A stretch of DNA of 55,046 nucleotides, filler included, from Sphacelaria rigidula (taxonomy: Eukaryota): NCBI GenBank assembly GCA_964200075.2. It is 6 parts of 6 records of this genome, joined end to end, with 100 filler letters (N's around TTAATTAATTAA, not from the genome) between each part and the next. Parts side by side here need not be neighbours in the genome. Positions count along the whole stretch, not along the records: positions 36,767 to 45,856 come from CAXNAA020009327.1; 5 more parts are not named here. The stretch is one strand, 5' to 3'. The notes beneath the pieces were generated by a model. The model saw only the letters and a program-made list of their open reading frames with translations. It was not told the origin of the DNA and did not search any database. This document shows, piece after piece, positions 11,942 to 55,046 of this stretch (its first letter is position 1; every line of letters begins with the position of its first letter). The translations under genes were made by a program, and so were the position numbers.

Positions 11942-14080
11942 TTACTGTGTATAGGAGAAGGAGCTGCCGCCTACCCTTGTCACCGAAGACACGTCACGAC
12001 CAGCCCCTGAGGATAGCTGGCCCGAAAGAAACAGTGGTGCTACACCACTACGCCTGGCAACAGGGTACACACTACGTCGAGCACCAATAACGTCGCTTCT
12101 GCCAGGGCTCAGGCATGGTGCGCGCTTGCGTTTTGTTCCTCGCACGCCAGCAACGCTTCCTCTACCACCCTCGGTTGTGCTACGGGTGTAGGTGGCCTCC
12201 TCAGTGCTGAGGCCTTCCATGTCGCACACTGTAGCTACGCTATGCGCAATGGGATGCTGTCGGCATAACACTGCCTCATCGAGGTTGTTGTTCTCGAGAA
12301 TATCCACTTTCAAGCGTCCCTCGTTGCTAGACTTGTGGCTCATCACATTAAGCATTCCCGCCCTGGCATGCTGAGAGCAGAACTCCGCCTCCTTGCTTCC
12401 CGCTACACGATACGACGACCTCTTGAAGCACCCCCCGTCGCCGCATTTGTTTTCGACCACGTCCGCCATTCCCGCCCTGGTGCGCGGAGAGCAGACCTTC
12501 ACCTTCTTGCTTCCCGCTACACCATACGACGGATTCTGGGAGCAGTCGTCATCGCCGCACTTCTTGTTGACCACATCCACCATTCCCGCCCTTGCACCCT
12601 GAGAACAGAACTCCGCCGTGTGGCTCCCGGCTACCCGAGGCGATGGCTGCTTGAGACAGCCCTCGTCGCCGCGCCTCTCCTTCATCAGATTCATCATTCC
12701 TGCCCTGGCATGCTGAGAGCAGAAGTCCGCCTCATAGCCCGGAACATCATACAATGGGAATTTCGAGAAGCCCTCGTCGCTACACTCTTTTTTCATCACG
12801 TCCACCATCCCTGCCTTGGCATGCTGAGAGCAGAACTCCGCCTTTTTGCTTCTCGCCACACCATACGACGGCTTCTTCGCGAAGCCCTCGAGGCCGCATT
12901 GTTTGTCCACCACATCCACCATTCCCGCCTTGGCATGCTTGGAGCAAAACTTGGCCTTGAAGCCGGGTACACCATACGATGGCCATTTCGAGCAGCCCTC
13001 TTCGCCGCATTTCTTGGTCATGACATTCACCATTCCTGCCTTAGCATGCTTGGAGCAAAACTCCGCCTTCTTGCTTCCCGCTACACCATACGACGGCTGC
13101 TTCGAGCAGCCCTCGTCGCCGCACATCTGGTGCACTACATCTACCATCCTCACCCTGGCATGCTTTGAGCAGAACTCCGCCTTCTTGCTTCCCGCTACAC
13201 CATACGTCGGCCTTTTGAGGCAGCCCTCGTTGCCGCAAGCCCTGCTCACCATATTCACCATTCCCGCTGTGGCATGCTCCAAGCAAAACTCCGTTTTCTT
13301 GCTTCCTGCTACACCACACGACGCCGCCTTGGAGCAGCCGTCATCGCCGCATCTTCTTGTCACTACATCCACCATTCTCGCTGTGGCATGCTGAGAGCAG
13401 AACTCCGCCTTCTTGTTTCCGGCTACACCATACGATGGCTTCTTGAAGCAGCTCTCGTAGCCGCACGACCTGTTCACCACATTCACCATTCCCGCCTTGG
13501 CATGCTGAGAGCAGAACTCCGCTTTTTTGCTTCCGGCCACACCATACGACGGCTTCTTGAAGCAGCCCTCGTCGCCGCACGTCCTCTTCACCACATCCAC
13601 CATTCCCGCCTTGGCATGCTGAGAGCAGAACTCCGCTGTTTTGCTTCCGGCCACACCATACGACGGCTTCTTGAAGCAGCTCTCGTCGCCGCACGTCCTC
13701 TTCACCACATCCACCATTCCCGCCTTGGCATGCTGGGAGCAGAACTCCGCCGTCTTGCTTCCCGCTACACCATACGACCGCCTTTTGGAGCAGCTCTCGT
13801 CGCCGCACGTCCTGTACACCACATTCGCCATTCCCGCCTTGGCATGCTTGGAGAAGAACCCTGCCTTCTTACTTCCCGCTACACCATACGACGGGTTCTT
13901 GACGCAGCCCTCGTCGCCACATTTCTTGCTCACCACATCCTCCATTCCAGCCCTGGCATACTTGGAGCAGAACTCCGCCTTCTTGCTTCCCCGTACACCA
14001 TACGATGGCACCTTGGAGCAGCCCTCGTTGATGCACTTCCTATTTGCCACGCTGGTCATCAGCTCTGTCGCGTGGTGTTC
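11942..14080 (-). CDS. EsV-1-7 domain (Cys/His repeat, putative zinc-binding) protein, large exon
   Basis: 15 tandem 37-38-aa repeats C-x4-C-xKxPSYGVAGSKKAEFC-x2-HAKAGMVDV plus one degenerate unit, followed by a tail with a KRKR basic patch. Probable acceptor TTTTCATCAG at 14090-14081, so upstream exons are likely; the in-frame ATG (MTSVANRK) is an alternative start. Confidence 0.9.
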   Translation of the reverse strand, partial: EHHATELMTSVANRKCINEGCSKVPSYGVRGSKKAEFCSKYARAGMEDVVSKKCGDEGCVKNPSYGVAGSKKAGFFSKHAKAGMANVVYRTCGDESCSKRRSYGVAGSKTAEFCSQHAKAGMVDVVKRTCGDESCFKKPSYGVAGSKTAEFCSQHAKAGMVDVVKRTCGDEGCFKKPSYGVAGSKKAEFCSQHAKAGMVNVVNRSCGYESCFKKPSYGVAGNKKAEFCSQHATARMVDVVTRRCGDDGCSKAASCGVAGSKKTEFCLEHATAGMVNMVSRACGNEGCLKRPTYGVAGSKKAEFCSKHARVRMVDVVHQMCGDEGCSKQPSYGVAGSKKAEFCSKHAKAGMVNVMTKKCGEEGCSKWPSYGVPGFKAKFCSKHAKAGMVDVVDKQCGLEGFAKKPSYGVARSKKAEFCSQHAKAGMVDVMKKECSDEGFSKFPLYDVPGYEADFCSQHARAGMMNLMKERRGDEGCLKQPSPRVAGSHTAEFCSQGARAGMVDVVNKKCGDDDCSQNPSYGVAGSKKVKVCSPRTRAGMADVVENKCGDGGCFKRSSYRVAGSKEAEFCSQHARAGMLNVMSHKSSNEGRLKVDILENNNLDEAVLCRQHPIAHSVATVCDMEGLSTEEATYTRSTTEGGRGSVAGVRGTKRKRAPCLSPGRSDVIGARRSVYPVARRSGVAPLFLSGQLSSGAGRDVSSVTRVGGSSFSYTQ

Positions 14081-17000
14081 CTGATGAAAAGTAACCTTCT
14101 CGCGGTAGCACAATTGGCAAAACACCGGAGGGTTCCGCTGTCAGCTGCAGGAGGAAGCAAGTTGAAAAAAGACGATATCGTCGCACATCAACGGGAAAAA
14201 CAGGAGCTACCTGCACTTACCGAAATGACACTTTACATAAACTGATCGCCACGACTACAACTCTAGTGCCCAAGGCAATTCAAGCGCATGGGACTTACTC
14301 ACCAATACGGCAGTATGGCTCTGGAGTACAAATAGCTTTGAAAGGATACAAGAGGAAAATGAAAGCAGACAAGCTTGAAGGCATAATACCACGTCGTGAT
14401 TCACCGGACATGATACATGCACTATTACACAACTCAGGGCTTGCAGAACACCTGCCAAAGGTTTTGGAGGTTGCTCTACACTGGCAGAGTGCCTGACAAC
14501 GTGGGAGGAGATCCTATACACCAACAAAGTTAGGGGAAACAGTCCTGAACTCGAAGATACCTTATCACGTTCCGAACTACTGGCCTGGTTTGATCCTGTT
14601 CTATTTCACTACCACAAAGTAGAGGAAAAAAAAAGAGGGAAGTCTTTTGTTTTCAACAGCAGTACACCCGACCGTCGAAAGCAAGTTATATCAATTTTGA
14701 TACCGAACTTGGTATGTGCACACACGTAACAAATTGTACATATCTGCCGAATCTCATTACACGCGCACATGTGCTCCCATGCTTGAATATGTTCATCTCT
14801 TTAATCATATCGGGTACCGTGTAAACCAACTGTAATGCATTGTAATACTTTCCACTTCAACCACACGTGAGTTCATATGTCGGGTTACCTGATGTTTGCT
14901 TCAGTCACTTCTACCTCACAAAGTTTGGCTCGTGTCGCGTCTACATGGTGTGCATGGTAGGACATGCTTGTTGCCGCCAGGGTCAGAGTGTCATGTCAGG
15001 AAAGCGCCGGAAGCTGAGTGAGCCGCAAAACTGTCAGGAGATGAAACAAGGCTTTCAGTACAGTGTATTGCATATCTGTTGGATAAGTATATCACGACTC
15101 TACGCGGTTAGTGGAAACATTCTAGATGACGCCGACATTACGATTATCGTCGCCGTGAAGATCCTTTCCTTGACAGCCCTCTTGGGAACCGGCAGACGCC
15201 TGACAAGAAGACGGGATTCTACAGATGAAGAATGGAGTTTTGAAGGGGAATGGACAAGGTCAAACATCGGAACGGAAAGTGCAAAAACGGTTCTTTGGAA
15301 ATATTGTTTTTTCACTTGTGAGATAGTCGCCCGAGGTTTCGGGGAGCCTTCAGCCGGGAAGGCGCGGGCAGTGGCGCCCGCCAATGCCGGGCCGCGAAGC
15401 AACCATGGTGGGTGTTGGCTGTAAGATATAAGGAGCCCGAAACCATGTCGAGGTAGTCAATTAAAAGTGTATGTGGGAGGATATCGTTTGTATTTGCGAT
15501 CCGATCGGATGGCACACATGCAAAACGTCCATTGCATCCGTGTAACACTTGTTTTTTATGGCAAACGCAGATTAGTTTCTAGATTTTTTCTTCTTTGTAA
15601 CTCGCCGTTGGACCTGCGCAGGACGTTGCGGGGCCCATTAAAACTACTCGAGGTTATCAAATCACTCATGTACATAGAAAACAACATCAAATTAGATTCT
15701 GTTCGATGTTCGGATGGATTGAAATCCAACGAGCAGCATTTAATGCCAACTCACTTACGATACATAGGAGTTTGTACGGATACCCCAAAATAGGTTTTGC
15801 ATTTTTGGGTACAACGTTTGACCTTGTCCATCCCCGAAACAGAATCCATCCCCGATTTGTAACATCCCGTGTTCAAGGGTGAAATACTCGAAACGCACCG
15901 ATATCTGACCAAACGCTGGGAAACCATCTTCGAGATTACCAGAATATCGCCGTTGTTGGACGCACATTTTAGCCTGATGAGGTGCCATCTCGCCTGTTTC
16001 GAACACACGTCCTGCGGTAAATATGTACTCCCTCTGATCGCGAATATAAGGAGGGTAAGGACAAAATGCGGCCTAAATCGGGCCCAGGATAGGTCTTTGC
16101 GAACTGCTTTTTGGCGGTTTCTCTGCTTTCCGTTTGAACAACTAGAACCGGTGTTTTTTAAACCTCCCTTTGTAAAAGGTTCTTCTACCCTATGAAGAGT
16201 AGCTCGAAATCACCACTCTCTTTCTGAGACTCCGGGCAAAAGCCTTCCCATCGCGTGATGAGATATGACTGCTGCTGGGAGTGCCGTTCAAGGGCCGAAG
16301 CGCAACAACTTCAATAATTCTGAGCAAGACGAAGTGATTCGGTGCCTCTCCGCCGGCAGCTTAGGGTAAGCGTTAGAGCTAGGATTAGGCAACCAGGGGA
16401 TGATCACGAGTCATCCCCGCCTTTTTTTCATGTTTTTGCTTACTTTTCGACCTGCATCAAACACGAGCACTCTAGAATGGACACGTATTTCGCGTATACC
16501 ACGCAAATACGTGCTACGTAAACGGGAACGTTAAGTTAGTTCGACACGAACGTTCTGAAGAAAACAGGTATTGTACACATGTGCTGCACAAACGCTCTCA
16601 CGTGAGATGTTTCATGTCCTGTTATGCCCAACGCGTGGGGTACTGTGGTCGTCGTGGTTCGAGGTCAACTGTAAATGTTTGGTGCAAGTTGACGAAGAAA
16701 CCGTCTACGCGGATGGAAAGACCCGCCGTTTATTTGCTGCTACTGTCACATCTGATTCCATCCCACATCTCTGTGACATGTTGCACTTGTCTTCTCATTT
16801 ATCTTGGTCGAACGAACATCCCATTACCCTTCAAGGAACCTTCACGTGTGCGCTAAGCATGTCATATACCCTCCATTTCGTTTATATGTGGTCCGGAGCA
16901 GCTGTGTGCTCAAAGGTGGAAAATGACCCCTAGCAGCACGACCGGTAGATGGTGTTTCAGGGCCTTGATCAAAGGGGGGGGGCGGTGGTACGCATACTCT

Positions 17001-41094: not shown

Positions 41095-43534
41095 CTTGCC
41101 GGTAAGCGCACGCGCCAGAGGGGAGGTGTCGGCGTCCCGACGTTGCAAGGTGGAATGGTTGAACCGATCGAGGCATCAGGGGTGCGACGAATGAGGTAGA
41201 CTGCTGCGACCATAACGCGATAACCAAAGCCACCATCAGAGCATATCGAGAGCGAAGCGATGCATAGTAGGCCATGATGGAACGCGTGCGGTATACCTCC
41301 CAGTCGGACTCCTGAACTCCAGACTCAGGTTGTTCATGTGTAAGCTATGGCAAATGACACATACAGTGGAGCGATTGGAGATTAACTCTGCAGAGGCTTC
41401 ATGTATGTGTATGTTTATACTACAACCTTGCTAGAACCTCAACCCTTGGACAGCGAGAGTAGGTCACGTGTTGAATCGGTATCAATTTCACTTGAAAAAA
41501 GTGTGCATGATCCAGGAAAACTAACCTCGCGGTCTAAGGGTTAACAATGCTCAAAACTATTCTGAAACATAGTATCCCCGCACCTGGAAAATGACAATTA
41601 AACGGCGTACGAAACAAAACACTTCATGAACGACACAAAACACCGGCGGTTGCGGTGCTAAATCTCGCCCTACTATTCCAGGCGCGGAAAGGAATTCAAC
41701 GGAGAAAGGATTCGCAGCAGCTAGAACGGGCGGACATCAAGGTTAGCTTCAAAGATCACCCCTTCCCCCCCCCAATTCGGCAATTTTTGTATAACCTTGC
41801 CCGACGGCAGCGGCCACCATAACCGCACCCGGAAAGCTCCATGAACGACACCCCAGCCAGTTCTAGACCGCGTCACAGCGAACACGGAGATATCATTGTC
41901 TTTGCACCGGATCTAGAAATCATGAAGTCACCTAATACCATGTACGAAAAAGTTTCCTCCTATTTCGTCCCCACTGGCCTAGGCCACCAGCTGTCTGTGC
42001 AACGTCTGACTTGATTTAAAGATGCAGAACACCAGCTGCGTTTCTTGAGTAATTGTGGAAGACTGTTGTCCCTACCAGAGGCCACGAGTTGTTTACCGGC
42101 CTTGGGCTACAAATGTCCATGATTGACACACTTTCCCCAGTATCGCTACCCCCAACCATAATCCCAACTCAATGCATACCGAGAACCCTCGGGCAACGGC
42201 GATATGTACATTCCTCAGGAAAAATGCGGCCTTGGTAGACCCCAAATCGGCGCCTGTGGCGCCGATTTTGAACGAAAACGCATTCTGCGCACGCGGAGAG
42301 CACACGGGACTGTCAGCCCTACCAAGATTTCGATTCTCGTTGTGAACACTCTATTCACAAGTAGTATCAACCCTGAACATGTATAGCGCAACACCGGTAA
42401 ACTCTACTGCGGTGCGAACACGGAAGTCGAGTTATCATACCGTAGTGTACTGAAGATAAGCATCAGGTGCAGTCGGTACTGTCAAGTCGCACCCGCCAGA
42501 CTATCCAAGTTACCTGGGTGTAAACTTTTGTAATGTACTGGACAACACAGTACTGTACTCCACTTTCAAAATTTGAGTGGAGGTGTACTCTTGGTGGTGG
42601 GAATCAGGGGGGTGTTAGCCTCCCCAAAAAATGTCTGGGCTGCCCGACGACATTTTTACGATCATAGACAATTCATCTTCTTTTCTTTTCTTACATGCGG
42701 ATATACTTGATTCAAAAATGCATCCTTCTCATAGGCTAATCGTGCTTTTAGGCAGCGCCCTCCCTGTTCAGACGCTACATACACACATACACACCCCTGA
42801 TACCCACGTTCGGATATATATGCTCAGTCAATGTGCTTCGCACGCGTGAGTTCGAATCTCACTGGTGTCGCCAATGTGGAAGTCGTGAGACTCCCGGTGA
42901 CGGTGGAAACCGTCGAAGGTGGCCGATGATTTCCCTCGGGTTATGTAGTCAAGGATTGACCGTAAGTCGTGGGGTTGAGGCAAAGTGGATCACTCGGGAA
43001 AGCTCGACGAGCGCGAGCGAGTTAGCCCGATGACGAAGTCTGAGAGTCTTGGTCAAGAGTGATCCCCAGGGATAGCCAGCAGTTCGCTGGGAAGATCCCT
43101 GTTACCTTGGGGTCCCAGATCCGGCTGTACAGATATGGAAGTTTCGGGGCTCCTGCGAACTTACCCCTGTAACAGCCGTTCACTAGGTTACACGTCATAA
43201 AAGGAAATCTCTCCGCACATGCCCATATGGCGATCTCCACAATATGTCTCATAGGGAATAGGAGGGACGGCATTGGAGAGGTGAGCCTACGTCTGAGACC
43301 ACGGGTTCGCGAGATCGGACTAATGTGCGGAAATAATAATGATAATACTAGTAGTAGTAACGATGCGGCCAAATGATAGTGGTTGGGTACGATACTAGGG
43401 TACATTCCACACTGGGGGAATGCGGCCGTAAACAGCATAAAATTTTGATTTTAACCTACAGGATGGTTGGATACTTGGCAATTGAATACTCTGATAGTTT
43501 CACTTGACTGACTATACTGCTGTGGCTGCTGATG

Positions 43535-43565
<31 letters not shown>

Positions 43566-44461
43566 CACCACCACCACCACTGTAGGACAGTGGTCATGAA
43601 ATGAAGGTGTACCTTGTTCTTGACCTCTTCGGGATGCACTTGTTGTCCGCACGACTTCTTGTACTGCTCAGCGCTGAAAAGGCGTAGCCGGTGGACTTCA
43701 CCCGATTTCAGTAATTTTTTATCGAGAGCACACAGCACTATATTGCCTCCTCTCTACTTGTATCAACTATGATGGTACCGGCAGTTACGCGTATTGAATT
43801 CCTCTCAGAGTTTTGACCCCAGTCCATTCGATGCCACATACAGATTGGTTCACGGGTTCGACCCGAATTTCAATTATCAGCAAAAAATGTCTTCCGCGAT
43901 ACCTACCCAACCTTCGTATTGATTTATTGATAGATTGATTGATGGATTGTCGAACTTTAACTGACTCTCCAGGGATCCAGCCGTGGTCTCATGATAGACG
44001 TACCCAAGAAAAACGAAACTGAAACACGCTCTGAAGAAAGAAGGAACAGGAAAAAAAAAAATTGAGCAGAACGACATGGCAGACCAAGTTGTAAAAACAA
44101 AAAGTAATAAAGAAGTCAACACAAGCAAAGCACAGAAAGAAATGGCCGACCTAAAATGTATGCATGGCATCATACTGACAGCGATCGTCAACTGAAGAAG
44201 AGGGTGATATAACCAGGATTTTGTTCAAGACCATAGTGGTGGCGCTTAGAAGGGCGAAACAAAGGTCAAAATACATACCTCGACCAAACCGGCGGCCTTA
44301 AAACTGTTGTGAACATTGAAATGAAAATTCTCATCAGCTCGGGAACCTAACGAAACAACAAGTTTTGGAAACGGTTTCCGTGGGATCGAATTGTACCTCA
44401 AGCGGAGGTATTTTGATGATGTGGGTTTTTAAGCGTCGTCGGATTTCCACTGAGTCAACCG

Positions 44462-44503
<42 letters not shown>

Positions 44504-45856: not shown

Positions 45857-45956
45857 NNNNNNNNNNNNNNNNNNNNNNNNNNNNNNNNNNNNNNNNNNNN
45901 TTAATTAATTAANNNNNNNNNNNNNNNNNNNNNNNNNNNNNNNNNNNNNNNNNNNN
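45857..45956. other. Artificial contig linker
   Basis: Same structure. Confidence 0.97.
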
Positions 45957-47189
45957 ATGTTCATGCTACACATCTAAACGTCTCGTCCCATTATCGGAAC
46001 CGTGGAAGCGACCCGTCGTCCGAATAAGACCTCACTCTCAATCATATCTTCAACTCTCAATCTCACGAAAACATTGTTATTTGTGGAATCGGCACCAGTT
46101 TTACTTGACAACGGTCGGGGTTTCATACTGGCTTTCACTTGGTTGTCATAGCACACTACCTTCCGAGGTACGGGGCACCTTCGCGCCACCGTACGCGGTG
46201 AGCTCCAACAAAACAAAATACTGCAGAAAGGAGGCAAACTGGGTTGTGATGGTCAAATAGAGAGGTAGGTGTGGCCAACAGCGGGAAAGGTGCAGAGGGC
46301 CAGCAGGAGATGGGACTCATCACAGAGAAACGACCGACCGCCTCTTGATTAATCGTCATCGTTTGCCTCCTTCAATTAAAATTCCGAGAGGTGCCGGTGT
46401 AAGAGGCTGTGCTAAATTCCGAGAAGGGGAGCGTGAGATTCACTGGTGAACGGTGGTGGCCACTGGTACGAAGGAGAGGCAAACGGCTGGCGAGATTCAC
46501 TGGTGTTCAGTGGTGTTCACTAGCACGTAGGAGAGGCAAACGGCTAGCGAAGTCCCTCGTCTCAGAGTGACGGGTTCCCTGAGAAAAAGCAAACGACTGA
46601 GGTAGAGTAATCAGAGGTGCCGAAGTGGCAGAAAGAGTGAAAATCCGTAAAAGTCCGCGACGAAATCGCAAGTTCCCAGAAAAAACAGGAGATGCAGTTG
46701 ACCACAGAGAAACAAAAGAATCAAATCCTGGCAGCTGGTACGCCGGAGTGCGGACAAATGCTGCGTTGTCAGGCATCATTCCTGCACACCTGCGTGCAGG
46801 AATGATATCTACGGACGAACATAATGGAATAGAATGATATAATACATTGCACTCACGTTAAGACCGTTGAGCAACTGCTAGACCGACACGAAGAACATCG
46901 CACCGGCGATGTCGCTCACGTTGTCGCTTTGTCACCAGATAGCGGACGCATTCACGGCAACCATGAATATCTGGCCCATCTTCACCTTGATTGACCCCTG
47001 CGCGGTATTGCCCACGGGGGAACAGGCCGGAAGGACTTCGTGCACCAGGATTCACAGCACATCCGAGCAGGTTCCTTGTGTTGTTGATCCTTCTGCCCCC
47101 AGGGCGTGGTCACCTGTTGAATGACCATCCTTTTTAACCTGAAACATGACTCCATGACACAGATGACCCACCATGGTGGTCGAACAGTT

Positions 47190-47400
47190 CAAGGGTCGGA
47201 CAAATAATGATTCGTCTGGAAATTACTTGGATTTAGTATGATGAGTCGACTCGTGACGAATCNNNNNNNNNGGAATGGCGCAAAAGTTGCGTGGATACCT
47301 CTTGGACCAGCGATCAACTTTTTTTCTCTCTTTTGGGCAATCAGGCCGAAGGAATCGTGAATTTGGTGATTTTGAGTCGTGACGATTTGTCCTAACCGTG
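47190..47400 (+). mobile_element. hAT-like MITE (CAAGGGTCGGAC TIR family), internal N gap
   Basis: TIRs CAAGGGTCGGACAAAT / ATTTGTCCTAACCGTG. Perfect 8-bp TSD GAACAGTT. Confidence 0.85.
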
Positions 47401-48824
47401 GAACAGTTATGGTACACTCACTAAAGGTACAGTGACGTCGCCGAGCCAATTTCACTAGATCGGTATCACTTCAAGATGTACAGAACCACAGTGTTGTAAG
47501 GCGCAAAATGAAGCTACAGAGCACTGCTGTACGCCACACACGATGTGATGAATAAGACTCCAGAAACAGGTGTTTGAGTAGCACATGACGCACATGACAC
47601 ACACGAGTGACGGACTATGTGGGCAATACGCTCTGTGTAGAATCGCTCATGTATGGTGTACTTCAGACACCATGGATTCACACATGACGTTGCACTCTTG
47701 AGTCAAGTGTAATACAGTATTAGCAGACAACCCACATAAAACCTTTTTTTATCCAGTGTAAAAACATTCGCAGGTTACCCGGCCATCACTCTGTTTACCC
47801 TGCAGCTTTGGATGGTAACTATTTGAGCATTTGCTTTTCTCGCGAGGTGTGTGGAGTACGTATTGCCATACGTTTGTTCACATTAAAGACGTCCCTCTTG
47901 TGAACACGGCTATATTCGTACGATATCTGCTCAGCGAAAGTATTCGACACCAAGCAAACCTCCTCGCAATGTCCCCCAGCTCGACGCTGACCACGAGTCA
48001 CCCTACACATCCCGGCGTTGGTCCTGTCACACTTATCCGTAAAAACACAAGAACATGCCGCAAATGTTATTTGAAGTATATCACCCCGGGACAATCATAG
48101 CCCCCTCTCCGATTATCGCGAAAGGCGAGGCCCGGTAGTTCCGTCAGATCAATCGATACCATTTTGCGGAAGACCTCGACGAGATCCTGCTGACGAGAAT
48201 ACTTGCGGCGGAGGTTGATGAGAAAAAACATAGCTCTGAGGCCATTGCTGGGGTTGGGGTTCTCAACGCTGCATCGTCCTCGCGTGATATACCCTGTAAA
48301 ATAACCTGCTTATTCGCCCCACCGTCGGGTTAACAACAGCATGAGACCCGTTGGTGGTCGAGGAGAAGTGTGCTTTGGTTCAAGCGCCGTCCTGTGACAC
48401 GCTTGGTTTCACTGTGCCCATTCATGATCTAGTTGGTCACCTTTTACAATGGTTCACTGGAAATCCGCTTCTACCATACTTGTGTTCTTGGTCGACATGG
48501 GACCGTCAAAATTGCAACAAGAAAAAACAACGACAGCAGCTTCTCCTACTACAATATTACAACAACGACTATAACTACAAGAACGTCACAGAGCTACAGT
48601 ACCACCTGGATACCTTTCTTACTTCCAGCACACACAGTGCCTTTGTAGCTATTTTGTAGAGAAGTCGTGAGGTGAGTGTTTTACGAAGTCGTCCAAGTCC
48701 ACTTTTCTCGTCTCAATATGCTTTTCACGATAAGCGCATCTCCCAAACCGAGAAAAATAATATCCACAAACATAAACCAAGAAGTACAAAACACAAGCAA
48801 CAACAACATCAACACCGGAAGTGA

Positions 48825-49236
48825 ACTTTAGGCTACTCGCGCATCTTCCTTCCCCAGCTTTGTCTACTTGACCGCCAGCGCTCGCTGCAACAACAACTCC
48901 GCTTGCCCGCCTGATCTAGTTTAGTTCAACACCGGGACAATTGATGTGACACTCAGGCCACCTGCACATCATCTGTCCCCACCTCAGCATGTTAGATCGC
49001 CAGCCCTCGACGGAACGACGAGTGCCCCCCCCCCGCCCGGCCGGTCCAGTGCGGTCAAGCACTTCCCAAACCATTTCACCGTATACACTACCCGTACATC
49101 CTCCGTTCCCGACATTGCTCCCTTGATCACCCGCACTCTCCCGAAAACCGACTCCGCCTCGCCCGCCCGGTCCAGCGTGTCTTGAACGCTTTGCCAGCTC
49201 ATGCAGCGTACAAGCTACCTCCACATCCTCCATCCC
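48825..49236 (-). pseudogene. ~3 degenerate TPR-coding 126-bp units downstream of the NB-ARC-TPR stop
   Basis: Continues in register after TAG (GMEDVEVACTLHELA), then frameshifts (LDRAGEAESVFGRVRVIKGAMSGTEDV) and accumulates stops. Confidence 0.85.
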
Positions 49237-52200
49237 CTACCTCGCCTCCTTGATCGCCAGCGCTCGCCGGAACAACACCTCCGCTTCCCCCGCCCGCTCC
49301 AGTCGAGTCAAACATCTGACCAACTCGTACAGCGTATAAGCTACCTCCACATCCCCCATCCCTAACCGCGCCTCCTTGATCGCCAGAGCTCGCCGGAGCA
49401 ACACCTCCGCTTCCCCCGCCCGCTCCAGTCGAGTCAAACATCTGGCCAACTGGTGCAGCGTAAATGCTACCTCGACATCCTCTATCCCCAGCCGCGCCTC
49501 CTTGATCGCGAGAGCTCGCCGGAACAACGCCTCCGCCTCCCTCGCCCGGTTCAGTTGAGTCAAACATCTGGCCAACTGGTGCAGCGTATAAGCTACCTCC
49601 ACATGCTCCGTCCCCAACCTCGCCTCCTTGATCGCGAGAGCTCGCCGGAACAACGCCTCCGCCTCCCCTCCCCGGTCCAGTCGAGTCAAACATCTGGCCA
49701 ACTGATGCAGCGTATAAGCTACCTCCACATGCTCCGTCCCCAACCTCGCCTCCTTGATCGCCAGCGCTCGCCGGAGTAACACCTCCGCTTCCCCTCCCCG
49801 ATCCAGTCGAGTCAAACATCTGGCCAACTGGTGCACCGTATAAGCTACCGACACATCCTCTATCCCCAGCCGCGCCTCCTTGATCGCCAGAGCTCGCCGG
49901 AGCAACACCTCCGCTTCCCCCGCCCGCTCCAGTTGAGTCAAACATCTGGCCAAGTCGTGCAGCGTATGAGCTACCTCCACATCCTCCATCCCTAACCTCG
50001 CCTCCTTGATCGCCAGAGCTCGCCAGAACAACGCCTCCGCCTCCCCCGTCTGCTCCAGTCGAGTCAAACATCTGGCCAACCCGTGCAGCGTAAACGCTAC
50101 CTCCACATCCTCCGTCCCCAACCGCGCCCCCTTGATCGCCAGAGCTCGTCGGAACAAAACCTCCGCTTCCCTTGCCCGGTCCAGTTGAGTCAAACATCTG
50201 GCCAACTGGTGCAGCGTACAAGCTACCGACACATCCTCCGTCCCCAACCTCGCCTCCTTGATTGCCAGAGCTTGCCGGAAAAACGCCTCCGCTTCCCCCA
50301 CCCGGTCCATTTGAGTAAACCGTATGGCCAACTCATACAGCAATTCTGACACAGGTATCGCACTGATCCCTAGCCTAGCCTCCGTGCTCACCAGCGCCTG
50401 GCGAAGCAAAACTCCCGCTTCGTGTAATCGTCCAGACTCTGCTAAACATCTGGCAAGCATCGCCCGTGCGTCCGCAATTTTTGCGGAGTCAGCATCGAGA
50501 TTCGCTTCCCCCGCTGCCTCTAATGCCCGCCTAAACCACAGCTCAGCCTTATCCACCCGCTCCAACGTATGGTAACACGAACCGAGCATCTGAAGGGATT
50601 GTACATACTCGGAAGTAGCAGCGACTCGGCCATCGGACCTCAACCGCGCATCTTCGACGTCTACCAAAGGTTCCATCAAACCTCGAAGACGCAAACTCTC
50701 CACTTCATCTCGGTGTCTCACCGATTCCTCACAGTGCCAGAGTGCAGTGAGAGAAGCATGAGGATTAGCCTCCGGGTTGCCCTCGCATCGCTCCCATACC
50801 TCCCGCATCACGGCCGCAGCACCATGAAAATCACTGTTGGTGTTATACAGCTCTGCCACAGCCGCCGCCGATGAGAAATACAACGGATCCGAGGAGTCTA
50901 GCGCAGACAGCGCAGAATCGTACGGGTGCAAGTTACGCAACCCTTTCCCCCCCACGAGCTCAACCGCCTCCCACAAACCCAGAAGGCTGTACACTTCCAC
51001 TAACCGCACCACCTCCAAGGTGGAAATATAGTTTTGCCATCTCTCCACCACCTCTCGGCGTATATCTTCACGAGTATCCACAAGAATCCTCCTAGCGTAT
51101 TCCGAGCGAGCGTCGTGCATGCGAAACATACCAGGTCCTGCCGCGGTGATGATTGCCCAACGCTCCAGAGCTGCCACCACTTCCCCAGCTCGCTCCAGAT
51201 CGTGCTCTGAATGCTCGTGACCGAATAACAACACACAAGCCTCGTACACCTCAAAAGCGTGACCGCCTGGCATTACCGCCAAGGCCAAGTAAAGCCACCG
51301 GCTCTGCGAATCCTCGGCCCCAAGGCACTCGAAGCCGGCTCGGAGAATCGCGATGCGTTTGTTCGCACTGGGGTCTCTATCTGCACTCCCACCATCATCA
51401 CCACCGACGTGTTTTTCTTCTTGAACCTTTTCTACATGATGCCGGATGACAGCAATCGCGTTGGACCATACGGCTGCATCCCTCCTCCCGTTCACCACCG
51501 TCCACCTTGCCACGGACTCCACGTACATGGGCATGTAGTCGCACAGCTCAAACAACTCACCGTACACAGATTCCGGCAAACGAGCGCCCTCAGGAAGTTC
51601 GGCGGCACTAGCCACCAGCGCCTCCGCCTCCTCCCGCCTCAGCCGCCCCAACACGATCGCCTTGCCACCAGCGTCATCTACCAGAACCTGATCTCGGGTC
51701 GTGAGCAGCACCCGCATGCCGGTCTTTCGCAGCTCCTGCACGACTTCCGTCTCCCACACGTCGTCCGCCACAAGTAGGCACTGCAGACCTTGGCGCTTCA
51801 TAGCCTCTTGGACATACGCTGTGCCGTTTTTCGGTTCGGTCGGCGACTGCCCGGGAGGATAGCCCCTGCTGTCTAGCACATTCTCGTACAACATCTGCGC
51901 AAGGTCCTGCATCAAACCTGGCAGACGCTCAGCCGCACCCCTACCCACGCGGAGCCATACCACGCCGTCGGAGAATAGCGCCCGCACTCGACTCAGCCGC
52001 TTGAGAGCCTTCTGGCGTGTCTCCCTGTCGAGAGTTCGGACCACACCCATCTCATCTCTTACTATCGTGGCCGCAGCGGTGGTCTTCCCCGACCCACTAC
52101 GGCCCACTAGCCCCGCCATCCACAGACCGTCCTTAGAGACGAAGTGGTTGTATACGTCATCTACCACAGTGTTGCGCACAACATGCCAGCCCTTCACTTT

Positions 52201-52308
52201 TGGAGCACCCGCTGGCACGGCAGAAAGCTTGGGTGACGACATAGAAGTACGTGCGAGGAGAGTCGCCATGTTCTCCCGCGTTGTTTGGGTGTCTCTCGCA
52301 ATGTGATG
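49237..52308 (-). CDS. NB-ARC (STAND NTPase) + TPR repeat protein, candidate NLR-like immune receptor; large exon, 5' exon(s) unresolved
   Basis: P-loop GRSGSGKTT, FSDGVVWLRVG, Walker B LLVADDVW, VLLTTRD and MHD motifs. 2-3 divergent TPRs, then ~8.5 near-identical 42-aa TPRs. Likely acceptor TTGGGATCAG ending at 52309. Confidence 0.93.
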   Translation of the reverse strand, partial: HHIARDTQTTRENMATLLARTSMSSPKLSAVPAGAPKVKGWHVVRNTVVDDVYNHFVSKDGLWMAGLVGRSGSGKTTAAATIVRDEMGVVRTLDRETRQKALKRLSRVRALFSDGVVWLRVGRGAAERLPGLMQDLAQMLYENVLDSRGYPPGQSPTEPKNGTAYVQEAMKRQGLQCLLVADDVWETEVVQELRKTGMRVLLTTRDQVLVDDAGGKAIVLGRLRREEAEALVASAAELPEGARLPESVYGELFELCDYMPMYVESVARWTVVNGRRDAAVWSNAIAVIRHHVEKVQEEKHVGGDDGGSADRDPSANKRIAILRAGFECLGAEDSQSRWLYLALAVMPGGHAFEVYEACVLLFGHEHSEHDLERAGEVVAALERWAIITAAGPGMFRMHDARSEYARRILVDTREDIRREVVERWQNYISTLEVVRLVEVYSLLGLWEAVELVGGKGLRNLHPYDSALSALDSSDPLYFSSAAAVAELYNTNSDFHGAAAVMREVWERCEGNPEANPHASLTALWHCEESVRHRDEVESLRLRGLMEPLVDVEDARLRSDGRVAATSEYVQSLQMLGSCYHTLERVDKAELWFRRALEAAGEANLDADSAKIADARAMLARCLAESGRLHEAGVLLRQALVSTEARLGISAIPVSELLYELAIRFTQMDRVGEAEAFFRQALAIKEARLGTEDVSVACTLHQLARCLTQLDRAREAEVLFRRALAIKGARLGTEDVEVAFTLHGLARCLTRLEQTGEAEALFWRALAIKEARLGMEDVEVAHTLHDLARCLTQLERAGEAEVLLRRALAIKEARLGIEDVSVAYTVHQLARCLTRLDRGGEAEVLLRRALAIKEARLGTEHVEVAYTLHQLARCLTRLDRGGEAEALFRRALAIKEARLGTEHVEVAYTLHQLARCLTQLNRAREAEALFRRALAIKEARLGIEDVEVAFTLHQLARCLTRLERAGEAEVLLRRALAIKEARLGMGDVEVAYTLYELVRCLTRLERAGEAEVLFRRALAIKEAR

Positions 52309-55046
52309 CTGATCCCAACGCAAACAATGGAAATATCGAGGGGAAACTGTTACAAGAGAGGATGGTCAGCTGCAGGAATAAGACTTCATCTTTCGGAAAC
52401 ATCAATGTCATGCTCCGAAGGGCTACCGTCGTTCATCTAGGTCGGTAATCAGATATTTTCAGAGGTAAAAGTCATGCTCAATAGCATTTTTGCCCTATTG
52501 GGCTTCAAACGCTACATTTGTTCGGGTTGAACCTGAAACTGTAAGGGGAGCAAGTGGCGTACAAAAATCGCACACACGCCGTGCAAAGCAGCATTCGGCC
52601 GAAAACATCCCCAGTTTCTTCTTAGGACAACAATGGAGAGAAAACAAGTGCGGGTTTGGTAAGGACTACAACAGATAGCAGAAACAAACAACCCTGCAGT
52701 ATGTTTTTTCAAACCAATGACGGGCTGAACTAGCCTAGTGTACCAAAAAGCTTGTGAGGTAAGAAAAATTGACAGATGGAATAGCTCTCCCAGTGCTGTC
52801 CTAGCGAATATCACTTTTCATTTGGACGTCGTCTGGAGAGCGCGCTGTGTGCTCGCCCTATTCACACAAATGTGTTGTATTGTTTTACCATCGCCCCCCA
52901 TGCTGGAAGGATTTGTATGTGATTGACGCGCACACCGCGGATGGACGGAGCTTGCTTCCCATCGGTCCCTGGGAAGTTGAACATTGACCACTTCGGAAAA
53001 GCGGTGGATTACTAGACCTACGATGTGCCTTATATCACGCATATGCGTAAGTGGTGGTGTGCGATGTTTGGGCGAATTGCGCTGCTCGCGTCGTACTATG
53101 TTCGTGTTCCCTTGCCGCAATGGTTCAAATTGGCGTGCCTCTCGAGCGAGGTAAACAGAGCTTGCTCGCTGTACTTTTTCTGGTGTTTTCCTTTAAGCTC
53201 GATGTGTCCGCCATCATAACGATATTGTCTTCGAAGGGTGACACGTGATCTTCTCAGTCGAGTGCGTCGTTCCTCGCGGGGTGTGCTTTGGCGCTACAGA
53301 ATCGATTGCGGTGCTTCTTGTTTGAGAATTCGCCCCCGAAACGTGTACGTTTCTGATAAAAGACTGGACAAAATGGCAATGGGTTGTGAGAAACTATGTT
53401 CGCTGCCTGTTGTGCCTGTGAGAAAAGGCTTACTCGACGAACAAAGTAATACACATGACCCACGGATGAATCATAACGGCCGTCAGACCTGTACAGACAC
53501 GCTCACAGTCGGGTCATGTGAAGACACATCTTGAGCTACCGCGCTTTCAATCATGGCACAGCGCCGCGTCCCGATGGTCTGACTGTTACACCTTGAAACC
53601 GGGTAGGGCACAGATGGGGATTCGAATCCGAGCAGAACCTGTTCTTCCCAGAATCATTCGATTTTGTCTGTTGAAAGCGAGACGACGTGAGCCGACGCGG
53701 TGCGGGAGTACCAATCCAAACCGCGGGACCAAGATGTGAAGCATGTAACAAAGATGGGTTGATCTATTGAGACCTCAGGCCCGTCGCGAAAAAAGGCAGG
53801 GATAGGGAGTAGACTAGGTGGACGAATACCAAGTATCCCCAACTAACGTATTCGACTTGCATGACGTATGTTTGTTGCAGGTGCCCCGGCTTTGTTATCA
53901 GCATGCTCCGGTGTACGAGCAATACCTGAGTACATGGCGACCCACACATACGCAAACTTACACCAGAGCACAGTTGGGATACACTGCTGAGGCTACCGTG
54001 CTTCCTCGCTCACTACGGCGGCTGGAGATATGTGCCCGTTGCGCATATGTAACGGGCAAAGCCCCTAGTCATGACAGGCAAAATCCCTCTTTTGCACAGC
54101 CTGACCCGTCGGGAAAAGAGCGGTGTTTTATTCCGAAACAAGACGCGTGCGAGAGACAGTTTCTGTCGCCAATCATGCCAGTGAACATCAACAAGACAAG
54201 TTGGGGAGGTCGTGTCTCCAATTTTTTGGGGCTGGGTTGAGTGGGTGTGAGGAGAATCGGAAATATTCCCGGAAATGAGAGGGCACGGTCGGCCATTGTC
54301 CTCTTTTACCGTGTGACCGCGAGGGTAGGTCATCCGGTCATGTAATCATTTTTCAAGTGAAATTGATGCTGATTAAACAGACGAACTATGCTCGCGGTCA
54401 AAGGCTTAACGATGAATGAGTACGTAAACTTTCGATTCCGAGTGTGCGTGATTGTGTTGTGTTCTGGCAAGTGATCACACTTTCGGAAATGAAACGGTAT
54501 GGGGGGGGTATCTATAATAGCCATTCCCCCGATACGGGAGGTCTAACCCTATTCGGACCGGGCCTCCAGAACGACCAATGAGGCTGGTTAGGAATGACGT
54601 GTCTGGCGTCTGNNNNNNNNNNCACGAAACAGGGGTGTGTTGCTGAAAATCCGCGTATGTAACCGCAGGGTTATGACGAAGACCGAAAGTTTCATCCAAT
54701 GTATTTTCAGGCGAAGGGTGCGCATTAGGTTGTATACATCTGCTGTAGCAAGCAGTATGGGTCACGGTTGAGAGCCTCCGACAGGGTGCGGCGACCGGCC
54801 TGTCGCCCGCCACTTGTGGCTTTGGATTATACTATTGTCCCCATCACCTTGCCACACAGCCCTTTGTGGTCGGGGTGGGCCACCATTTCCCCCTTCATTA
54901 CATGCGGCAAATTCTCTTCGAAGAGCATCAGCGTTGCGCCACGCATGCATACAACAGTATAGTACAGTACAGTGTAGTACGCCTCTCCGACTCAAGCAGC
55001 AGTTGCCACTGCATATTCCCTTGCACGTTCTGGGCAATTCTCAGCT

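Follow-up and report, generated by a model that had tools for sequence, protein, structure and literature searches.

The window analysed here, a stretch of 55,046 nucleotides (filler included) composed of six parts of the Sphacelaria rigidula assembly GCA_964200075.2, contains a single LTR separated by one nucleotide from a partial copy of a serine tRNA. The features of this locus, which are read directly from the sequence unless another basis is given, are as follows.

42423-42820, no strand assigned: left flank without an internal retrotransposon domain (depth of 79 in run X1 over 42423-42545)
42821-42873, minus (element strand): 3'-tRNA-Ser(GCU) copy, positions 33-76 (the last three being CCA), 53 nt, mature form, cytosolic-type
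42821, plus: U33
42822-42824, plus: anticodon GCT
42825, plus: C in place of the purine that tRNA genes carry at position 37
42827-42831, plus: 3' strand of the anticodon stem
42832-42845, plus: variable arm, 14 nt, with a 4-bp stem
42846-42862, plus: T arm, with a 5-bp stem and the loop TTCGAAT
42855, plus: A58, placed from the T loop TTCGAAT
42856-42873, minus: canonical PBS portion, 18 nt, tRNA positions 59-76, common to other family members
42863-42869, plus: 3' strand of the acceptor stem
42870, plus: G73
42871-42873, plus: CCA
42874, minus: 1-nt spacer that separates the PBS (TGG...) from the LTR end (...CA)
42875-43241, minus: LTR core of a very high-copy family, 367 bp (from depth, contig ends and inverted repeat I9)
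43242-43411, no strand assigned: U3 extension of a subfamily (537-bp LTR ending at 43411) or adjacent DNA (from depth and inverted repeat I7)

On the plus strand, 42821-42873 reads as the sense 3' portion of a tRNA with a long variable arm, and the same interval forms a 53-nt 'PBS' on the minus strand of the element. The traits of tRNA-Ser(GCU) are all present, namely the long variable arm, G73, the GCU anticodon following U33 and the T arm, and every stem pair that can be checked is intact (9/9, five in the T arm and four in the variable arm), as is the T loop. End-to-end alignment of 42821-42870 gives 42/50 identity with four tRNA-Ser(gct) genes of 83-85 nt from viral contigs; of the 44 Ser tRNAs compared, the four that match best in this way are Ser(gct) without exception, in a comparison set that is biased because its members were picked by exact T-arm match. 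An exact acceptor plus T-arm match, or an identical tRNA 3' end, was not found in viral_contigs. Rfam assigns the T arm within the 60-nt stretch to the tRNA/tmRNA clan (E 0.013); a plastid trnS-associated family matches weakly in antisense (E 0.48), and no relevant match was returned over 42000-44200. Folding of the 53 nt alone is no better than that of shuffles (z -0.36), a result that is expected for a partial tRNA and uninformative. Compared by eye, 42844-42864 agrees at 20/21 positions with the complement of a 'serine-tRNA' probe from Phytophthora published in a passage of PMC3804510. The earlier note had described a 53-nt copy of tRNA-Ser(GCU) running from CCA to U33 with an abrupt loss of tRNA similarity beyond, and direct reading and the 42/50 alignment confirm this description; no tRNA-like sequence lies 5' of 42821 (alignment A1).

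To our knowledge, CCA is never encoded in eukaryotic tRNA genes. Because CCA is present and the piece lies in PBS orientation 1 nt from the LTR end, it is regarded as a copy of a mature primer rather than of a gene, and the copied RNA is, judged by its sequence, cytosolic-type tRNA-Ser(GCU) acting as primer of the adjoining LTR family. A functional tRNA gene or pseudogene was also considered and ruled out: CCA is present, the 5' half is missing, and ARAGORN detects no cloverleaf here and no whole tRNA anywhere within the window.

The adjoining TG...CA repeat begins at 42875 with TGTGGAAG. The termini of its core, TGTGGAAGTCG and CGATCTCCACA, are complementary at 9/11 positions (inverted repeat I9), with the outer end ...CTCCACA at 43241; an alternative outer end, ...TTCCACA at 43411, yields a 7-nt TIR with 7/7 complementary positions (inverted repeat I7). 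In four public runs, 3806 (X1), 773 (X3), 3472 (X4) and 3693 (X5) contigs match 42300-43500, and the summed depth in X1 reaches about 141,000-302,000 over 42875-43242, compared with 79 in the single-copy flank. The family edge at 42875 is sharp, with flat depth and no 5'-truncation gradient. The proposal of a TG...CA repeat with relatives is thereby borne out by hundreds to thousands of contigs per run, and the family displays features expected of LTR retrotransposons, namely TG...CA termini with short inverted repeats and a recurring PBS behind a 1-nt spacer. Its length probably needs revision, since similarity is lost exactly behind 43241 in 48-60 contigs per run (X1, X4 and X5), and among 32 listed pieces 10/32 end at 43241 and 0/32 cross it. 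The 537 bp originally assigned to the LTR probably overstates it by 170 bp, or is true of a subfamily only, and the core measures 367 bp.

Beyond the core, 43284-43347 is a different and more abundant repeat, with an X1 depth of 1,115,986 at 43284-43324 versus about 250,000 over the LTR core and just 19,889 at 43243-43283. An A-rich/(AAT)n tract occupies 43331-43360, and the loose contig ends behind 43339-43347 are A-rich in many copies. Depth falls to 0 at 43366-43406 in 3/4 runs, a hole that is possibly a filter effect and not proof of absence, and the same caveat attaches to the missing cover over 43366-43500 in X1, X4 and X5. A tRNA-derived SINE on the plus strand was considered for the A-rich tails and rejected, the tRNA part not being family-wide and its 5' half missing.

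Over ~473 positions, the differences listed between this copy and the family majority number only five (42905, 43271, 43278, 43282 and 43296), and it is therefore considered young. The window holds no second LTR copy detectable by blastn at word size 7 and no second PBS detectable by a pattern search with up to 2 mismatches, while LTR copies sought in viral_contigs, metagenome_contigs and genome_contigs amounted to two chance matches, L001 (22 nt) and L002 (in a phage gene). Neither paired LTRs nor coding domains came to light for this family. Whichever outer end is adopted (43241 or 43411), the locus appears to contain exactly one LTR.

Measurement of the PBS in other copies separates this locus from its relatives. 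At the same spot, the tRNA complement is limited to about 13-18 nt in contigs of the four runs, which extend 210-829 nt past it: in pieces 10 (X3) and 26 (X5), the match stops at 42856, or tRNA position 59 (as read from minus-strand record coordinates), followed by 210 and 399 unmatched nt, respectively, and in piece 18 (X4) it starts from 42858, with 829 unmatched nt before. Contigs diverging before about 42861-42868 number five in X1, one in X3, six in X4 and five in X5 (a loose-end cluster before 42868), and depth drops from 278,896 at 42905 to 10,375 at 42865 and 7,287 at 42862. Inside 42821-42855, there are no variant rows and no loose-end clusters among those listed. Since the tRNA complement of other copies is only about 13-18 nt long, a length of 53 nt is not a family trait, which answers the question of family-wide PBS length that the earlier note had posed. 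The X1 depth of the bin 42833-42873 is 10,983, a value that cannot alone exclude other copies over 42833-42855. Contigs of three runs break at 42850-42855 and the X3 contig continues to 42897; the break leaves room for other loci in which the tRNA stretch is partly present.

Up to about 42710, the left flank consists of single-copy DNA, and a short ACATACAC repeat lies at 42777-42794. The 42820/42821 junction is crossed by contigs 1, 9, 17 and 25, i.e., in all four runs, and a single-copy X3 contig spans 42323 to 42897 without a break. To the left of 42821, the sequence also differs from the post-PBS sequence of other copies. Because single-copy DNA adjoins the tRNA piece on the left, the internal domain is absent, as had been claimed. 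The accompanying claim that no TSD exists stands for the 43411 end (flanks ATATA / CTGGG) and fails for the 43241 end, where ...ATATA and ATATG... have ATAT in common; this could be a short duplication, microhomology or a mere AT tract. No empty-site joint (42820-to-43242 or 42820-to-43412) occurs among the 15 joints listed of 44. With respect to the intron setting claimed earlier, 0/10 flanking ORFs have Pfam matches. No RNA run is listed as containing the stretch.

To account for this anatomy, the primer identity, a 53-nt copy outside the family norm and the single-copy DNA beyond it, we infer a strong-stop route followed by end joining. The best explanation, and a reasonably probable one, is that strong-stop synthesis continued beyond A58 as far as the anticodon loop and that host repair then joined the product to the chromosome. 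The element, on the minus strand, would belong to a very abundant LTR-retrotransposon family in a brown-alga-type genome, primed by cytosolic tRNA-Ser(GCU) and normally equipped with a PBS of about 13-18 nt one base past the LTR. Plus-strand strong-stop synthesis would have started at the U3 edge, copied the LTR, and next copied the primer still joined to minus-strand DNA. Without halting at A58, it would have run on through the T arm, variable arm and anticodon and ended once U33 was copied. Such a product would be a replication dead end, because its 3' tail cannot pair with the short PBS, and it may then have been joined to the chromosome by host end joining instead of integrase, which would explain the presence of one LTR, the lack of an internal domain and the absence of a clear integrase-type duplication.

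The locus is real and unusual, yet of a kind already known, the precedent being capture of Ty1 cDNA in yeast. Such capture at chromosomal double-strand breaks was reportedly described by Moore & Haber 1996, Teng et al. 1996, and Yu & Gabriel 1999. More recently, passages of Yu et al. 2024 (PMC11372161) describe yeast double-strand breaks that capture Ty1 LTR fragments, which, as is proposed here, are end-joined without integrase, many with cDNA-only nucleotides, and which likewise lack the internal domain. Those events arise at induced breaks in laboratory yeast, whereas the present one is a natural heritable insertion found in all four runs of a brown-alga-type genome. Its primer copy is 53 nt long and reaches the anticodon loop. 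Helenus TRIMs (Kojima 2024, in sections of PMC10886601) also combine an LTR element with tRNA-derived sequence; they contain a whole tRNA-like promoter unit in both LTRs, 4-5-bp TSDs, a PBS and a PPT, in contrast to the 3' partial tRNA with CCA found here, which occupies the PBS position next to, not within, a single LTR and in one copy only. A Helenus-type TRIM was accordingly rejected as an identity for the locus, the tRNA piece lying outside the repeat and only a single LTR being present. The main texts searched yielded no report of an integrated LTR with a long tRNA copy, and that of the Ectocarpus TE paper (PMC12477816) makes no mention of tRNA, PBS or solo LTRs.

The tRNA copy itself may retain traces of modified bases in the primer. 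A58 reads as an ordinary A. Since m1A read-through usually miscodes, copying as a normal A suggests that the primer molecule was probably unmethylated at this position, which is an additional assumption. Passages of PMC13191261 indicate that plus-strand strong-stop DNA normally terminates at m1A58, that TRMT6 mutants allow extension past A58, that unmodified tRNA is copied through to its 5' end, and that m1A58 of mouse tRNA-Ser(GCU) is inducible and hence not constantly present. A close parallel is HIV-1 with tRNA-Lys3, in which the polymerase passes A58 if m1A58 is missing or bypassed, minor products terminate at psi55, m5U54 or ms2t6A37, and long products are useless for strand transfer (same passages of PMC13191261). 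Unlike the present locus, the HIV-1 products are biochemical or cell-culture molecules and not integrated fossils, they derive from another primer, and their stop in the anticodon loop is at 37 rather than after U33.

At position 37, the earlier note expected A and read C, and both halves of that statement hold: C37 stands at 42825, followed directly by A38, and A37 occurs in 20/20 Ser(gct) and 44/44 Ser tRNAs of the 591 tRNAs that ARAGORN calls in 118 fetched loci (position 37 overall: A 514, G 69, T 8, C 0). Judged against this set (0/591), C37 appears not to be gene-encoded. C37 could also be a later substitution. A random change hitting exactly position 37 is a priori unlikely because the copy is young, and misincorporation opposite a bulky A37 modification of the t6A family has a chance only slightly short of even. 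According to sections of PMC4986895, the t6A signature U36-A37-A38 is present in tRNA-Ser(GCU), most t6A of certain protists and plants is in cyclised form, and i6A37, which retains the N6 hydrogen, causes no misincorporation. Because plain t6A likewise keeps this hydrogen, miscoding is expected only from ct6A, m6t6A and ms2t6A, whose presence in brown algae is an assumption of the misincorporation reading. At its U33 end, the copy stops exactly one base short of the residue that, in the same source, is m3C32 in all eukaryotic tRNA-Ser studied. An m3C32 block of this typical kind may account for the end after U33, at rather less than an even chance, a probability that it shares with cleavage of the primer within the anticodon loop. 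Taken together, the interpretation of the locus through t6A37 and m3C32 is plausible.

tRNA halves are made in the anticodon loop, where the copy ends. The strongest alternative, though an unlikely one, retains the same captured product and holds that cleavage between C32 and U33 had left a 3' tRNA half as primer (giving run-off), or that the end was trimmed, with C37 an ordinary later substitution. It is helped by there being one scorable mismatch only in a copy that has had time for about 1% change, and by the fact that an N6-substituted A37 keeping its N6 hydrogen need not miscode (sections of PMC4986895). At about 1% divergence, however, a substitution exactly at 37 has a prior of ~1 in 100, the nine stem pairs and the T loop are otherwise intact, and the end lies precisely one base before the m3C residue.

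The preferred route requires that a reverse transcriptase copied the primer; a distinctly less probable version has a break capturing minus-strand DNA with its tRNA primer, part of which was copied during repair by a host polymerase. The same anatomy of LTR, spacer and primer copy is predicted, and passages of PMC11372161 suggest that DNA:RNA hybrids and single-stranded intermediates may be captured, but 53 nt of modified RNA would have to be copied by a host polymerase, and minus strands normally extend past U3 into internal sequence, none of which lies on the right at either LTR end (43241 or 43411).

It is very unlikely that a long PBS is constitutive in the family or a subfamily of it and that the locus is a 5' LTR that has since lost its internal part by deletion. 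The X1 bin depth over 42833-42873 and the contig breaks at 42850-42855 are compatible with it, but the listed copies diverge after 13-18 nt, no variant or loose-end cluster among those listed falls inside 42821-42855, the single-copy X3 contig passes unbroken to 42897, and the single-copy sequence to the left of 42821 does not resemble that behind the PBS elsewhere. Least probable of all is a chance neighbourhood, with a tRNA pseudogene or tRNA-derived SINE head abutting an LTR or a plus-strand poly(A)-tailed retroposon, which would suit the A-rich/(AAT)n tracts and the excess abundance of 43284-43347 but conflicts with the CCA, a spacing of exactly 1 nt, the PBS orientation, the recurrence of these 13-18 nt at the corresponding site of other copies, the sharp, untruncated edge at 42875, and a tRNA part not common to the family.

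In the model of Ohshima and Okada, tRNA-derived SINEs are said to originate in strong-stop DNA of retroviruses together with the primer tRNA, and the tRNA-CCA-U5 junction predicted by this model is what the plus strand shows here; unlike such a SINE, however, the present sequence is single-copy and has no 5' half of the tRNA (A box). More tentatively, and well below an even chance, the locus may be a heritable 'tRNA-seq read' made by a retrotransposon reverse transcriptase, recording a primer without m1A58, a miscoding t6A-type base 37 and a blocking m3C32, and supplying the natural tRNA-CCA-U5 chimera needed by the strong-stop model of SINE origin.

As evidence for a fossil-based map of modifications, a single locus is suggestive and proves none of it. 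What it offers is the identification of tRNA-Ser(GCU) as the primer for one of the most abundant repeat families of this genome, and an indication that a brown-alga-type organism can acquire dead-end reverse-transcription products in its germ line without the action of integrase. Should further fossils of this kind exist, the positions at which they end or are miscoded would form a free, testable map of tRNA modifications that block reverse transcription; and if the 'tRNA-seq read' reading is true, a genome-wide census of these fossils could map such modifications in lineages without tRNA biochemistry.

On the plus strand, 42821-42873 reads directly as the sense 3' portion of a tRNA with a long variable arm, with the following parts:

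42821, plus strand, U33
42822-24, plus strand, anticodon GCT
42825, plus strand, C at tRNA position 37
42826, plus strand, A38
42827-31, plus strand, 3' strand of the anticodon stem
42832-45, plus strand, variable region of 14 nt with a 4-bp stem
42846-62, plus strand, T arm with a perfect 5-bp stem and the loop TTCGAAT, which places A58 at 42855
42863-69, plus strand, 3' strand of the acceptor stem
42870, plus strand, G73
42871-73, plus strand, CCA
42874, 1-nt spacer between the tRNA copy and the repeat

The repeat begins at 42875 with TGTGGAAG, one base past the CCA, and the junction reads '...CTTCCACA, T, TGG...' on the minus strand: an LTR end, then a single spacer base, then a primer-binding site (PBS) that extends over 53 nt. 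This reading bears out the earlier note, which had described a 53-nt mature tRNA-Ser(GCU) 3' end from CCA to U33 lying 1 nt from an LTR. None of the nine stem pairs that can be checked is disrupted, the ten bases upstream of 42821 align to no tRNA, and ARAGORN finds no complete tRNA across the entire window.

The family was assessed from Logan contigs of four public sequencing runs, matched to 42300-43500 at 80% likeness (3806 in X1, 773 in X3, 3472 in X4 and 3693 in X5); depths are summed contig depths and not copy numbers. Left of the tRNA copy lies single-copy DNA, which bears out the claimed lack of an internal domain, and each of the four runs has contigs spanning the 42820/42821 junction, so that no empty allele is seen there. 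Left-flank contigs end inside the tRNA copy at 42853 (X1), 42850 (X4) and 42855 (X5), and X3 reaches 42897. The 42855 break is the effect to be expected if a tRNA gene matched the copy at every base from position 38 on, an explanation that 42853, 42850 and X3 fit less simply; the ends may reflect words that also occur in tRNA genes or in other copies, or else a difference between alleles. Further left, 42300-42422 is another high-copy repeat, with several majority variants unlike the window and X1 summed depths of 22,136 (42300-42340) and about 2,700-2,800 (42341-42422) against 79 in the flank. The tRNA piece carries CCA, lies exactly at the PBS site in PBS orientation, matches the family's primer and has neither a 5' half nor an internal domain beside it; it can hardly be anything other than a primer-tRNA copy that arose in reverse transcription.

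Comparison tRNAs were obtained by scanning viral contigs for a 19-nt T-arm string; ARAGORN on the resulting 118 loci gave 591 tRNAs whose anticodon could be read, including 44 for Ser, a set that is biased because it was chosen by exact T-arm match from phages and giant viruses. Among these 44, only four align end to end with 42821-42870 (loci L013, L106, L067 and L101, the first two labelled giant-virus MAGs). Each is a tRNA-Ser(gct) gene of 83-85 nt with an identity of 42/50; they have the short variable-arm stem in common with the window copy, and position 37 is the sole difference in the anticodon loop. These eukaryote-type genes (4536-4618 in L013) share 84% identity with the algal primer copy across positions 33-73. 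Compared by eye, 42844-42864 also agrees at 20/21 positions with the complement of a 'serine-tRNA' northern probe given in a part of PMC3804510 for Phytophthora, another stramenopile. Of the 591 tRNAs, 514 have A at position 37, 69 have G, 8 have T and none has C; the T-arm-selected set has A37 in 44/44 Ser and 20/20 Ser(gct) tRNAs, and the C at 42825 thus stands, as claimed, where A is expected.

The copy ends one base short of position 32 and its sole visible oddity lies at 37, which fits m3C32 and t6A37. Passages of PMC4986895 report m3C32 in all eukaryotic tRNA-Ser examined and U36-A37-A38 of tRNA-Ser(GCU) as the t6A37 signature, and t6A37 is described there and in part of PMC8373065 as mostly cyclised in some protists and plants. 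From sequence, C37 may tentatively be taken as miscoding at a modified A37, at slightly less than an even chance, and a block at m3C32 could, with similar reserve, account for the end after U33. A random change at exactly position 37 has an a priori expectation of about 1 in 100 at about 1% divergence, and the intact stem pairs point the same way. Against this, A58 was read normally, and an N6-substituted A keeping its N6 hydrogen (shown for i6A) does not miscode according to a passage of PMC4986895, so that a t6A derivative would be needed at 37. The U33 end would be explained equally well by a primer that had been cleaved in its anticodon loop, U33 then being its 5' end, or by trimming of the product prior to joining.

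The LTR family is clearly among the most abundant repeats of the genome: X1 summed depth is 79 in single-copy flank against about 141,000-302,000 over 42875-43242. The window holds no second copy, and the viral, metagenome and prokaryote collections gave chance matches only. Of about 473 positions, just five are listed where the window copy departs from the majority letter, and it is therefore near the family norm.

The confirmed repeat unit is 42875-43241 (367 bp). Similarity is lost exactly behind 43241 in 59 (X1), 48 (X4) and 60 (X5) contigs, and what follows in them is long (median 250-255 nt) and differs from contig to contig (agreement 0.37-0.39). Among the 32 numbered contigs ("pieces") listed, none crosses 43241 and 10 end there, 9 of which continue for at least 285 nt. 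The termini 42875-85 and 43231-41 are complementary at 9/11 positions. The 537-bp LTR claimed earlier, ending in TTCCACA at 43411, is accordingly unconfirmed, and the claimed lack of a target-site duplication holds for that end (ATATA/CTGGG) and is less clear for 43241, where the flanks (ATATA/ATATG) have ATAT in common. Whether 43242-43411 is a subfamily U3 extension or neighbouring DNA with another repeat is about evenly balanced. An exact 7-nt inverted repeat at 43405-11 (chance expectation about 1%) favours the extension, as do the window copy's letters at 42905, 43271 and 43296, found at similar minor-variant depths (about 50-120 flank-depth equivalents). X1 depth is 19,889 at 43243-43283 and 1,115,986 at 43284-43324, above the LTR core; many copies continue after the latter segment into A-rich or (AAT)n tracts, and 43366-43406 has zero cover in three of the four runs, a gap that is no proof of absence.

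The short segment with A-rich/(AAT)n tract at 43284-43365, whose summed depth is about 4x (X1) to more than 20x (X3) that of the core, could represent the tail of a distinct retroposon of extreme abundance, or else a module common to several repeat families. Microsatellites lie nearby, (CTG)16 then (CCA)5 at 43517-43580 and (GT)18 at 44466-44501, and filtering of contigs bearing them may explain missing cover right of the element. Elsewhere on the minus strand, 11942-14140 is a 732-aa open frame with 15 EsV-1-7 cysteine-rich repeats (Pfam PF19114, E 1e-199), whose repeat structure also leaves the antisense frame open, and 49237-52365 is a 1042-aa open frame encoding an NB-ARC domain together with numerous TPR repeats, overlapped by a Gly-rich repeat frame (49199-50332). 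Both genes are in keeping with a nuclear genome of brown-alga type. The window contains 459 N, which show up as runs of X where open frames pass near 45913 and inside 47189-47470.

Toward the tRNA copy, X1 depth drops from 278,896 at 42905 to 10,375 at 42865 and 7,287 at 42862. Matches of pieces 10 (X3) and 26 (X5) end exactly at 42856, tRNA position 59 and the canonical 18 nt, an end point that depends on how minus-strand records are numbered (the numbering agrees across pieces 1, 2 and 27); they continue for 210 and 399 unmatched bases, respectively. Piece 18 (X4) matches from 42858 after 829 unmatched bases, and a cluster of 5, 1, 6 and 5 contigs (X1, X3, X4, X5) has about 13 nt in common before diverging. 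No listed variant or loose-end cluster falls inside 42821-42855, and a single-copy X3 contig is continuous over 42323-42897. Since the other copies listed diverge after about 13-18 nt, the 53-nt stretch is not the family's PBS, and the alternative of a constitutively long PBS, for which PBS length in other copies had been set beforehand as the measure, is very unlikely.

According to passages of PMC13191261, plus-strand strong-stop synthesis normally runs through the LTR and on into the primer, the first 18 nt of which it copies before halting at m1A58; tRNA-Lys3 gives longer minor products ending at psi55, m5U54 or ms2t6A37, an unmodified primer is copied through to its 5' end, and synthesis extends past A58 in TRMT6 mutants. 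The same passages describe long strong-stop products as unusable for strand transfer, and m1A58 of mouse tRNA-Ser(GCU) as inducible, so that unmethylated molecules exist. Synthesis passing A58 into the primer's anticodon loop would yield a dead-end LTR-plus-tRNA product, which would need host repair to enter the chromosome. A precedent is found in yeast, where double-strand breaks take up pieces of the Ty1 LTR, 40 of 56 of them with cDNA-only nucleotides according to the part of PMC11372161 concerned. The locus is thus probably a captured read-through product.

Read-through strong-stop DNA and the capture of cDNA intermediates are known processes, of which this locus is a clean natural instance; the literature searched contained no account of an LTR integrated in nature together with a long copy of its primer. 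The strong-stop model of SINE origin requires a tRNA-CCA-U5 junction, and it is this junction that the locus displays.
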